This document shows positions 23,401-54,726 of a DNA stretch of 64,000 bases, in pieces; positions within the stretch are counted from its first letter, which is position 1; each line of letters starts with the position of its first letter. The position numbers and the translations under genes were made by a program. The notes beneath the pieces are model-generated. The model did no database searches. It was not told the origin of the DNA and saw only the letters and a list, made by a program, of their open reading frames with translations. Source of the stretch: an uncultured Verrucomicrobiae bacterium (GTDB lineage: Bacteria > Verrucomicrobiota > Verrucomicrobiia > Chthoniobacterales > JAFAMB01); contig CAVXLD010000003.1 of the NCBI GenBank assembly GCA_963762565.1, positions 32,001-96,000 on the forward strand, given 5' to 3'.

Positions 23401-23853
23401 CTAGTCCCAGAGGTATTTGTCATCGAGATTGCCGCCGTGGTTTTTGAGAAACGCTAAATATTCGTCTTTAAAAGTCCGGGTTCGGTGATGTTCAAGCTGC
23501 TGTTCGATGTATTGGATGGTTTCAGCTACCTGACGAATGCCAACGCTAAAGGCGCCGTAGCCTTGCTGCCAGGCAAAGTTTCGCAAGTGTGGAAACGTGT
23601 GATGTATCCAGCCGGCCGACCCTGTTTTTATTAATTTCATCGCTTTTGCAATTCCCATTGTGGTCGGCAGTGCAAGTAGAAGGTGGACATGATCCGCGAC
23701 ACCACCGATGCATTTTGGGAAAATTCCATTCTGTCTTGCGATGCCACCCATCTATGGCCAAAGGCGTTCCCTGAGATCTGGAACCAAGACCGGAGTGCGC
23801 TCTTTTGTGCTAAAGACACAATGGATGTTTAGACACGAGAAAGTGTTCGACAT
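23401..23853 (-). pseudogene. tnpA: IS200/IS605-type Y1 (HUH) transposase, REP-associated (RAYT-like), with an in-frame amber stop at codon 34
   Basis: MSNTFSCLNIHCVFSTKER..RLWP*MGGIA..DHVH..FAWQQGYGAFSV..YIEQQLEHH; TAG at 23752-23754. Confidence 0.88.
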
Positions 23854-23989: not shown

Positions 23990-24077
23990 ATCATACCGTC
24001 CCTCCGGGACGGATCGCTTCGGGGGCATCTTCCAGGCATTTCATGCCAGGCTACCTTCACGCGGTCCCTCCGGGACA
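23990..24077. repeat. REP arm (family C), right of Y1 transposase
   Basis: atcataccgtccctccgggacgg..ccaggcatttcatgccaggctacc..gtccctccgggac. Confidence 0.88.
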
Positions 24078-52228: not shown

Positions 52229-52834
52229 CTGGGCAATTGTTCGACGAGTCGTTGCCTTTGTCTTGATGCCCAACGTGCCAGCTTCTCTTTCTGATTATCA
52301 TGAGCAACAAGTGCGATCCTCTTCTGGTTAAGCAACGGTCGAGGTGAACTACCATTCATGTGATTAGGGACGCTACACCAGCCCGTGACAAGCACTCCGA
52401 GTCGGTCACATGCTCACTTGCCTTTCAGGCAATCGATGAACAGTAACGAGTGCCCTTCTAGTGCAAGCGCCTTCATTTCTTCTTGGGTTGGGCGATAGTC
52501 AAAACATTCTTGACCCAGAAGGTGGTCGCCAGCGTCAGCCTGTTTGAGCAGGAATCCATCTGTGAATTCGCGCCATAGATCGCTATTTTCATTCATTTGA
52601 TCAGTTACTAGACATCAAGATTGGAAGGGCTAGCGGTTCGCTGTCTCAATTGCTGTATTTTTTGTCTTAACCCAGCTTAGCGCACTCTGGTTGTATTGAC
52701 CCTAGGCAGGCTGTTGAGAGACCGGTTCTTTTGTCCCGGAGGGACAAACCGATGGTAGCCTGGCACGAAGTGCCTGGAATTACGGCAAATTATGACCCGT
52801 CCCGTAGAGAGCCTGAGGTGGTCTGCAAGTTTTT

Positions 52835-54109
52835 TTAGGAAGAGTTTTTCACCGCGGCGAGTGGAGAATCGCGTTTAGCGAGGGCGGTGAGATAAAGTTG
52901 TGGGTCGTAGGGTTGACGGGTTTTCCAGCAACGGAAAAGAATACGGATCCATTTGTAAGCCAGAGCACGCACCGCGGCATGATGGCCTTTACCTTTGGCC
53001 TTTTGTTGGTCATAAAAAACCTTGGCCCAATCACAGAAGCCCACCGAGTGGCTGGCAAACTCATGAAAAGATTGGCGCACAAATTTCGGACAAGCCCAGC
53101 GGAAATGAACCCGAGAGCTTTTGCCGCTGCGTTCAGTGACTGGAGCGATACCAAAGAAGCTCAGTGCCTCCAGTGGGCTAGTGAAACGGTCCCGGTCGGA
53201 GCCGAAAGCGCTGAGCAAACGCGGGCCCAGCGCCTCTCCGGCTCCTGGGAGATTGTTGAATAAAGTGCTGTCGGGATGCTGAGCAAAAAGCTGGGCAATT
53301 TCTTTTTCGTACAGGACAATATAAGGGGCCATTGCTTTGAGCTGCTGGGCTAACATGAGGGTGGTCAAAGTCCCTGCGTCAATGATGGCTTTATCCCGAG
53401 TCAGAGGTTGGCCGGTCTCCACGCGTTGGATGCGGGCTTGAATCTTTTGTTCACTCCGGCACTGATGGCCATAAAAGAATCTGCGCAGTTTGTGAGTGGA
53501 GGCCTTTTTGAGCGACTCGAAGTTGGGCCAGTTGAGCAAAAAATCCGCCGCTAAGACCGTGGTCAGATCGTTATCCAATACGGCCAGAGCCAGAGGAAAA
53601 AAGGCCTTTAGTTCGCTTTTGAGCTGATTGCTCAAAGCGCTGCGAGCATCGACGGCTTGGCGCCGCTTTTCACAAAGAAGCGCTAACTTACGGGTTTGCT
53701 CGTCGTCGGGCCGCCAGGGATGCAACTGCTGGTAGTGCAGACTAACAAATTGACAAAGTAGCTGCGCATCACTGGGATCATCCTTAGCGCCGCTAGGCCG
53801 AAAGGCTTTGCGGTAGTTGTCGAGCTGTTTTGGATTAATGGGGTAGAGCTCAAAACAGTCATAACCCATTAAGAAATGAATCAGTGCTCCCCGACTCTGT
53901 TCCAGGCAGATCAGGATTTTACCTTCAGAACCAAAGCGTTCTCGCAGTTCCAAGACCCAGTCGCTCAAAGCTTCCGGCTGGCTCTCAATGCTGCGACCCT
54001 CCAGCTTGGCTTCCTCGGCGGCCGCTCGCAGAGCGATATCATGTTTTTGATCTGCCCAGTCGATTCCGACAAAAGCACTAATGGTTTTTTGATTGCTAGT
54101 GCTAGACAT
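52835..54109 (-). CDS. IS110-family DEDD recombinase/transposase
   Basis: FVGIDW, CLEQSRG, KDDPSDA (DEDD); C-terminal LPGAG..GIAPVTERSGKS with conserved Ser, AVRALAYKW. Confidence 0.93.
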   Translation of the reverse strand: MSSTSNQKTISAFVGIDWADQKHDIALRAAAEEAKLEGRSIESQPEALSDWVLELRERFGSEGKILICLEQSRGALIHFLMGYDCFELYPINPKQLDNYRKAFRPSGAKDDPSDAQLLCQFVSLHYQQLHPWRPDDEQTRKLALLCEKRRQAVDARSALSNQLKSELKAFFPLALAVLDNDLTTVLAADFLLNWPNFESLKKASTHKLRRFFYGHQCRSEQKIQARIQRVETGQPLTRDKAIIDAGTLTTLMLAQQLKAMAPYIVLYEKEIAQLFAQHPDSTLFNNLPGAGEALGPRLLSAFGSDRDRFTSPLEALSFFGIAPVTERSGKSSRVHFRWACPKFVRQSFHEFASHSVGFCDWAKVFYDQQKAKGKGHHAAVRALAYKWIRILFRCWKTRQPYDPQLYLTALAKRDSPLAAVKNSS

Positions 54110-54149
54110 GGCTGGCTTTAAACTAAATTGATTACAACAAACACTGGCG

Positions 54150-54397
54150 ACGCCCAGAGTGACGACAAACCCTTATAGTGAGACGTAAATCGCACTTGGG
54201 CGAGTTCGTCACGGCCTGAGTATTGTTCTGCACTCCAGGCTGATCAGCCACCCGAAACTCTACGGGGATTCGTTACCGAAGGGGACGGTTATTCGTGGTG
54301 GCTGACGCGCCTTGGGCGAAGTTATTCACAATCTGGGCTCGCTCACGCTCCAAAGCTCTTTTTGGGGGCTTTGGCCCCAGATCGATGAATAACTTCG
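54150..54397 (-). ncRNA. Putative bridge RNA of the IS110 element
   Basis: 5' hairpin 54317-54397; target loop in stem 54244-54305 with guides ACCGTCCC and CCCGTAG; donor loop in stem 54159-54212 with CTATAAG. Confidence 0.8.
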
Positions 54398-54726
54398 GAC
54401 CACCTATAAGGGACGGTATGATCGAGTAACATCGATGGGGCGATGTCCGAGGGCCTCCAACCGCGAACTGAGACTTGCATTAAAGATCCGTCTCACGCCT
54501 AGCAATCGCCAATCATACCGTCCCTACAGGACGGATCCGCTTGGGGGACGCCTTCCCAGGCACTTCGTGCCAGGCTACCATCGATTTGTCCCTCCGGGAC
54601 AGAAGGGCCCCGTTTTCAATCCGGCAGCTGCCGGCAGCTGCCGGACTAGACTATAACCTTTCAGCCCCGACGTGCTCCGGGGTAAACGCTTCGCGACGCC
54701 TTCTAAGTCAACTGGGCAACAACTTG

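Follow-up and report, generated by a model that had tools for sequence, protein, structure and literature searches.

A probable IS621-type insertion sequence with a bridge RNA in its left end, lodged in a REP palindrome of an uncultured Verrucomicrobiae bacterium

The element, its target and its recombinase

We examined a 64,000-nucleotide (nt) stretch of an uncultured Verrucomicrobiae bacterium (assembly GCA_963762565.1, contig CAVXLD010000003.1, positions 32,001 to 96,000 of the forward strand), referred to here as the window, at which a first-pass annotation had placed an IS110 element with a bridge RNA directed at a repetitive extragenic palindrome (REP) of the host. The element is read on the minus strand, and it is very probably a complete insertion sequence (IS) of the IS110 family, IS110 group and IS621 type, with a bridge RNA in its left end. 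This is supported directly by its anatomy and protein family, by covariation in the RNA fold and by guides that vary in step with the flanks from one relative to the next, while circle formation, transcription and the activity of this copy are presumed by analogy. The element, its target and its gene are arranged as follows.

52806..54410, minus strand: whole insertion sequence, including both copies of the CT core (1603 bp unique plus the duplicated CT)
54411..54419, minus strand: left target half ATACCGTCC, the left arm of the REP hairpin, read from the sequence and the paralogous repeat
52797..52805, minus strand: right target half ACGGGACGG, the right arm of the REP hairpin, read from the sequence and the paralogous repeat
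52835..54109, minus strand: recombinase gene, an open reading frame (ORF) of 424 amino acids (aa)
54518..54534, plus strand: empty, inverted REP copy next to the element, with one base in its right half different from the occupied site

On the minus strand, the left junction consists of ATACCGTCC (54419-54411), CT (54410-54409) and TATAGG (54408-54403), and the right junction of CAGGCTCT (52815-52808), CT (52807-52806) and ACGGGACGG (52805-52797). The CT core is thus present at both ends of the element, whereas it is single in an uninterrupted paralogous repeat at C3:427594 (minus strand of the same contig), which reads ATACCGTCC-CT-ATGGGACGG and has near-identical flanks on both sides. Because this paralogue is uninterrupted and shares nearly the same flanks, the ends of the element could be fixed at 1603 bp plus the duplicated CT. 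The CT core and the reading of the empty site in the first-pass annotation are borne out by the single CT of the paralogue, and the strings that it listed all occur on the minus strand where it had placed them. The left end spans 54408-54110 (299 nt) and the right end 52834-52808 (27 nt). This is the layout of the IS110 group, with a long left end that holds the RNA (the RNA model described below matches 54139-54315) and a short right end.

The 20-mer rebuilt from the joined flanks occurs elsewhere in the 6.1-Mb genome once exactly, 8 times with at most one mismatch and 27 times with at most three. These copies share a larger unit, which is composed of the hairpin ACCGTCCC-nnn-GGGACGG, about 20 bases and a second hairpin. 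Two of the palindrome copies have a gene for a Y1 transposase of RAYT-like size about 150 bp away, with one such pair inside the window, and since these RAYT-size genes adjoin copies of the palindrome, the name REP is justified. The genome copies and the RAYT-like neighbours agree with the earlier proposal that the target is a REP palindrome of the host. The element interrupts the REP hairpin at its loop, and the two target guides between them read both arms. As the unoccupied inverted copy at 54518-54534 lies next to the occupied site, the element occupies one unit of a doublet.

The pair within the window comprises a Y1-transposase match (PF01797) of RAYT-like size with one in-frame TAG at 23497-23838 (minus strand) and a perfect copy of the same REP hairpin at 23996-24012 (plus strand), about 150 bp away; the second pair, outside the window, is at C3:712536-712877 and C3:713032. 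The occupied unit (54419-52735, minus strand) and its neighbour (54514-54600, plus strand) form a REPIN-like inverted doublet of the two-hairpin unit, and an uninterrupted, near-identical doublet is found at C3:427594-427729.

The 424-aa product matched PF01548 (DEDD_Tnp_IS110; E 2.5e-26, covering positions 1-155 of the 155 of the profile) and PF02371 (Transposase_20; E 1.6e-10). With a score of 156.5 bits it also passed the NCBIfam model NF033542 ("IS110 family RNA-guided transposase"), for which the cut-off is 140. Among solved structures, only the IS621 and ISCro4 transposases were matched, over the C-terminal half and with E about 6e-07; the match to the IS621 chain 8wt6_A (E 5.9e-07) aligns S328-G329 with the Ser-Gly of IS621. 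An alignment of 16 relatives shows no change at E70, D111, D114, S328 or G329 and almost none at D17. The putative DEDD residues are D17, E70, D111 and D114, and the putative nucleophile is S328, followed by G329. The catalytic set of IS621 is given as D11, E60, D102, D105 and S241, with a conserved G242 alongside, in PMC11208158. The ORF, both Pfam domains, the NF033542 match and the catalytic residues are all in keeping with the 424-aa IS110 recombinase that had been proposed.

Other IS110 DEDD matches exist in the same genome. Four of them (C1:471817, C3:319565, C4:142755 and C9:31301) have identical scores and 370-aa frames and look like a different, multi-copy element of the IS110 family, and further single matches are at C3:841633 and C12:256447.

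The bridge RNA, its guides and their covariation with the flanks

The predicted RNA is encoded upstream of the recombinase gene in the left end, and its modules and guides, together with the left-donor bases in the right end, are the following.

54318..54396, minus strand: long 5' stem-loop of the bridge RNA, from the predicted fold
54243..54306, minus strand: target-binding loop module, with stem 54306-54292/54256-54243 and inner hairpin 54280-54269
54153..54239, minus strand: donor-binding loop module, with basal stems 54239-54231/54161-54153 and 54226-54223/54168-54165 and inner hairpin 54210-54182
54147..54151, minus strand: 3' strand of the closing helix, which pairs with 54310-54307 and encloses both loop modules
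54282..54289, minus strand: left target guide ACCGUCCC, equal to the left target plus core C, pairing with the bottom strand
54260..54266, minus strand: right target guide CCCGUAG, reverse complement of CT plus ACGGG
54258..54259, minus strand: target-loop handshake guide AG, complementary to the last two left-donor bases, CT
54214..54220, minus strand: left donor guide CUCAGGC, with the same sequence as 52817-52811 in the right end
52811..52817, minus strand: left-donor bases CTCAGGC, the counterpart of the left donor guide
54172..54178, minus strand: right donor guide CUAUAAG, reverse complement of CT plus TATAG
54170..54171, minus strand: donor-loop handshake guide GG, complementary to the last two left-target bases, CC

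Relatives were collected by a scan of one genome per species, which gave 206 relatives in 229 candidate stretches, of which 80 were kept; these are 38-77% identical and come mostly from metagenome-assembled genomes of Verrucomicrobiota, Acidobacteriota and Planctomycetota. With a profile of the left end, the two-loop part was found, on the plus strand, in 60 of the relative loci. The ends of the relatives were placed by their donor motifs (on the left CTTATAG or CTTACAG; on the right CTCAGR and then CT, with a TTG motif before), which are independent of the target guides.

The left end folds at -113.6 kcal/mol (z -5.6), and none of 100 shuffles did as well. RNAalifold, when run on 11 close sequences, returned the closing helix, the target-loop stem with its inner hairpin, the two-part stem of the donor loop and its inner hairpin. 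On a MAFFT alignment of 37 diverse sequences, the target-loop stem and hairpin alone were recovered, and an alignment based on a covariance model was needed to follow the donor loop across diverse sequences. A structure projected from one MAFFT alignment (A3) was discarded, as the basal stem of the donor loop was misaligned in it, and the projection from another alignment (A4) was used instead. The helices of the window are 54310-54307/54151-54147, 54306-54292/54256-54243 and 54280-54277/54272-54269 for the closing helix and the target side, and 54239-54231/54161-54153, 54226-54223/54168-54165 and 54210-54200/54193-54182 for the donor side, and in the family structure projected on the window all four guides lie in internal loops. 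The 5' stem-loop is kept in relatives of the Verrucomicrobiota type, at which CUGGG/CCCAG is replaced by CCGGGG/CCCCGG, and this long hairpin is limited to closer relatives.

A covariance model (R1), built from the 11-sequence alignment, matched at full length in 54 of the 57 sources searched and scored 123.3 bits in the window, with no match in the remaining three (L007, L041 and L060). In the 56-row alignment made with the model, 96.1% of the cells pair, compared with 69.0% in shuffles and 34-46% with slid partners, and 47 of the 50 pairs in the six helices show compensatory changes on both sides; these figures come from an alignment that was fitted to the model and is therefore biased toward structure, and two of its rows are weak reverse-strand matches.

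The target-loop stem of the first-pass annotation, TCAGCCACC (54305-54297) pairing with GGTGGCTGA (54252-54244), is present and forms part of the conserved target module. Its second stem (54159-54165/54206-54212), which it had read as that of the donor loop, fared differently. The complementarity between GTGACGA (54212-54206) and TCGTCAC (54165-54159) is real, and the minimum-energy fold of the single sequence uses it, but the pairing is absent in the nearest relative, L002, and overlaps the conserved donor helices, and we take it to be a competing pairing rather than the stem of the donor loop. A left donor guide within this second stem was also considered and rejected, as the stretch that follows GACGAAY agrees with the right end in no more than 3-5 positions; this candidate was dropped once a conserved ACUCAGR segment was seen.

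The left target guide is read from the string ACCGTCCC at 54289-54282. Of the guides proposed previously, the left target, right target and right donor guides were recovered here, whereas the left donor guide, CUCAGGC, had been missed and is located outside the stem that had been noted. It stands directly after a conserved AACGAAU, at a place where the relatives have ACUCAGA and two variable bases, which track the right end, often by G-T/U-G pairs.

The covariation of the guides with the flanks, proposed earlier as a check, was found for both target guides. For the right target guide, 53 of 61 elements (the 60 loci and the window) had a right flank, which gave 34 unique pairs of guide and flank. 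The guide agreed with the five bases after CT at all five positions in 22 pairs, at four in 11 and at three in 1 (mean 4.62), whereas 1100 mismatched pairs averaged 1.40 and only 4 of them reached 5/5; the sequences in this control are related, and it is not to be read as a probability. The left target guide could be compared in the 48 elements with a left flank (41 unique pairs); its longest run averaged 6.56 against 3.22 in 1602 mismatched pairs, and a run of at least 7 was reached in 24/41 cognate pairs and 55/1602 mismatched ones. The 8-base left match and the 7-base right match of the window are typical among the relatives, and in the nearest relative, L002, the guide is UCCCGCAG and the flank CT-GCGGGA. 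In five Verrucomicrobiae relatives (L036, L022, L025, L040 and L072) the element is flanked by runs of GTC/CGT triplets, such as CGTCGTCGTC-CT-CGTCGTCG, with no palindrome, and the guides of these relatives match the runs.

A handshake-guide logic is described for IS621 in PMC11208158. The first handshake position of the donor loop is the complement of the base that ends the left target in 36 of 38 unique relatives, a result equalled in none of 10000 permutations, while the second position fits in 19/38. The position in the target loop fits in 16/16, but it is invariant.

CT is part of both right-hand guides, that for the target and that for the donor, whereas the left target guide covers the C and not the T. 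Complete pairing of the core by the left guides, as in IS621, is thus not seen in the window, and the second core base is left unpaired by the left guides in many relatives as well; whole-core pairing by the left guides is a property of IS621 and not a criterion of the family.

Within the window, chance was estimated from 2000 dinucleotide shuffles of the left end. The 8-mer of the left flank plus core was found in 63 of them, the right target 7-mer in 459, the left donor 7-mer in 172 and the right donor 7-mer in 88, and all four matches together in none. Each match in the window is by itself only modestly unusual, and the strong evidence is that from the relatives.

Proposed mechanism, expression and alternative explanations

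Three further features bear on the junction that the two ends would form in a circle.

52823..52828, minus strand: -35-like hexamer TTGCAG in the right end, with 3/6 consensus bases, 17 nt from TATAGG after circle formation
54403..54408, minus strand: -10-like hexamer TATAGG, with which the left end begins, with 4/6 consensus bases and no final T
54398..54405, minus strand: left arm AGGTGGTC of an 8-bp subterminal inverted repeat, with its partner GACCACCT at 52816-52823

The relatives keep the geometry of the two hexamers, with TTGACA or TTGACG and mostly TATAGT, and a promoter split across the circle junction is reported for IS621 in PMC11208160 and PMC11208158. Repeats of 6-9 bp, differing in sequence, are found in the same place as the inverted repeat in 16 of 33 unique relatives; the lengths that Durrant et al. 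report for subterminal repeats are 2-3 bp in the IS110 group and 7-17 bp in IS1111.

By analogy with published work on IS621, the element would be excised as a circle in which the right and left ends are joined at their shared CT, which would set the -35-like hexamer of the right end near the -10-like hexamer of the left end. Transcription from this junction would yield a bridge RNA of about 250 nt with the 5' stem-loop, the loop for target binding and that for donor binding. In the donor loop, CUCAGGC would pair with the left donor and CUAUAAG with CT and the right donor, while the AG and GG beside the right-hand guides would match the opposite partner after strand exchange, in a handshake-like manner. 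The 424-aa DEDD/serine recombinase would exchange strands at CT, and this exchange would place the element in the loop of the host REP hairpin.

Several observations weigh against this reading. With 7/12 consensus bases left, the junction promoter is weak here, and no sigma-70-like site was found before the RNA in the integrated state. Of the two core bases, the left target guide pairs with the C alone; the left donor guide pairs over 7 bases, with 3 more between its end and the core, and the right end exceeds that of the relatives by one base. The element is single-copy, and the RNA model matches once in the 6.1-Mb genome. Rfam gave no match to a bridge-RNA family, but only four weak, unrelated matches below the gathering scores. 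In the single-sequence minimum-energy fold, the left donor guide is hidden (unpaired probability about 0.1), as are stretches of the other guides, and the family structure is at -45.4 kcal/mol compared with -65.7 for the minimum, a gap that is similar in L002 and L019. The pairing of the left donor guide in the minimum-energy fold arises because the 5' strand of the donor basal stem, CCUGGAGUG, is complementary to the left donor guide, ACUCAGGC (54239-54214, minus strand). A similar but weaker complementarity, of UUGAGU with ACUCAG, is seen in closer relatives, and it may be a switch or a coincidence.

Other samples were searched for the element and its products. Soil metagenome runs of several studies contain the stretch, and contigs 90-99% alike were found in three other soil studies. 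These contigs cease to match at 54422-54423 and 52796-52797, just beyond the REP arms, and two of them continue differently, which is consistent with insertion of such copies into further units of this repeat family. A joint from 52805 to 54409, which skips 1603 bases, is present in one contig of a foreign soil run (X6), but it is weak (depth 2.65, with 29 letters on its shorter side), and it was rejected as a trace of excision, since the paralogue at C3:427594 would map alike at 90% likeness. No circle junction was found in the contigs of four soil runs, and the only joint among them is of the empty-site form and may be the paralogue. Three soil metatranscriptome runs contain 5-8% of the sampled words. 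In one of them (X18), contigs 90-95% alike cover 52797-53038, 53319-54006 and 54326-54423, and the lack of any cover of 54042-54285 and of the two loops is a further point against the reading; DNA carry-over is possible for these contigs, and they tell neither for nor against expression.

One explanation that has to be weighed is that the element is of the same kind, but that this copy is a stranded, immobile relic, whose right end has drifted such that transcription from the circle or recognition of the donor fails. We regard this as rather unlikely, but it would account for the single copy in the genome and for the differences from L002, compared with which the element lacks one base of the -35-like hexamer and has one base more in the left donor. 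The left donor guide that stops short of the core after 7 bases, the two exact 14-mer target sites left unoccupied in the genome and the one-mismatch REP, about 110 bp upstream of the left end, that is still empty point in the same direction. On the other hand, the ORF is open with every catalytic position kept, the RNA matches the model at full length, and the contigs of the three other soil studies have no indel in the right end relative to the window and in some cases have other flanks beyond the REP arms. As these contigs show the same right end with differing flanks, this form of the right end is common to copies at several sites. The description of the element as intact can be kept for the ORF and the RNA fold, and only for these.

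It is also conceivable that the left end is a structured leader of the transposase mRNA, that the protein alone picks the target and that the matches to the flanks stem from the palindrome. A palindromic target does ease short matches, as the right target 7-mer in 459/2000 shuffles illustrates, and the RNA contigs leave the loops uncovered. However, the match persists, with the correct strand polarity and in the same places of the loops, in relatives whose targets are quite different and not palindromic, the handshake base covaries too, and the mechanism has been demonstrated experimentally for IS621, as stated in PMC11208160 and PMC11208158; we find this explanation highly improbable. Still less credible, to the point that it can practically be set aside, is that the guide matches are due to chance and the boundaries misplaced. 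Single matches in the window do have chance rates of 3-23%, but the four together were found in 0/2000 shuffles, the boundaries are set by an uninterrupted paralogous repeat, and guides and flanks covary in the relatives. The covariation, the fold and the domains of the enzyme all favour the bridge-RNA reading, and with it the earlier description of a naturally programmed, RNA-guided element in a REP with the target-loop and donor-loop layout.

Comparison with known systems

RNA-guided recombination by IS110 elements and REP targeting have both been published, and no new principle is involved. The RNA-guided IS110 class has been known since 2024, and the naming model of NCBI already labels the protein an RNA-guided transposase. 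REP targeting by IS110 elements has been known for long, with Choi 2003 and Tobes 2006 cited for it and ISPpu9 and ISPpu10 as further cases. We found no publication that joins bridge RNA with Verrucomicrobia, and the supplementary tables of Durrant et al. 2024 may list the clade. What the locus offers is a natural bridge recombinase, from a soil bacterium not yet in culture, that is mapped cleanly, with four guides, two handshake guides, a fold, ends and a target family, and the approximately 50 relatives with differing guides and targets should be useful for comparative work and for testing orthologs.

We put forward, only tentatively and as something that is probably not the case in full, that the soil clade with 424-aa enzymes (Verrucomicrobiota, Acidobacteriota and Planctomycetota) represents a distinct sub-architecture of bridge systems. 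It may combine long right-hand guides (core plus 5, for target and donor), left guides that end at or before the core, a closing helix round both loops, and a covarying subterminal repeat of 6-9 bp together with a left-end RNA. If this were true, the repeat of 6-9 bp with a left-end RNA would put the clade between the IS110 and IS1111 groups, and the sub-architecture may raise natural specificity.

One of the closest known systems is IS621 from E. coli (IS110 group; structures 8WT6-8WT9). According to the IS621 reports, both have a DEDD RuvC-like domain and a Tnp domain with Ser-Gly, as well as a long left end coding for a bridge RNA in which a 5' stem-loop precedes the loops for target and donor. 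In both, the core is CT, the left guide has the sequence of the top strand and the right guide its complement, handshake guides are present, and insertion is into REPs. A promoter split by the circle junction is described for IS621, and a weak candidate for one is seen here. On the other hand, the IS621 protein has 326 aa and the one described here 424, with only the C-terminal half aligning (E 5.9e-07); the right-hand guides of wild-type IS621 are reported to have 4 paired bases, whereas here they pair the core and 5 bases on both sides. Moreover, the left guides here fall short of pairing the whole core and a closing helix encloses both loops. From the IS110 group as a whole, the element differs in its subterminal repeat of 8 bp, compared with the 2-3 bp reported for that group.

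ISPpu10 and ISPpu9 from Pseudomonas putida, which we compared by description only, are likewise bridge-RNA elements of the IS110 family that sit in a repeated intergenic palindrome and have REP or stem-loop targets, as given in 10.64898/2026.03.19.712850 and PMC12288879. For ISPpu10, the target hairpin itself is reported to add specificity. Beside these two, the element of the window is inserted in the loop of the REP hairpin, with both arms read by guides. With the IS1111 group, it shares a DEDD recombinase, RNA-guided choice of target and a subterminal repeat within the 7-17 bp of that group (8 bp here). In IS1111 elements the RNA (seekRNA or bridge RNA) lies in the right end, which is long, while the left end is short; in the element described here this arrangement is reversed.

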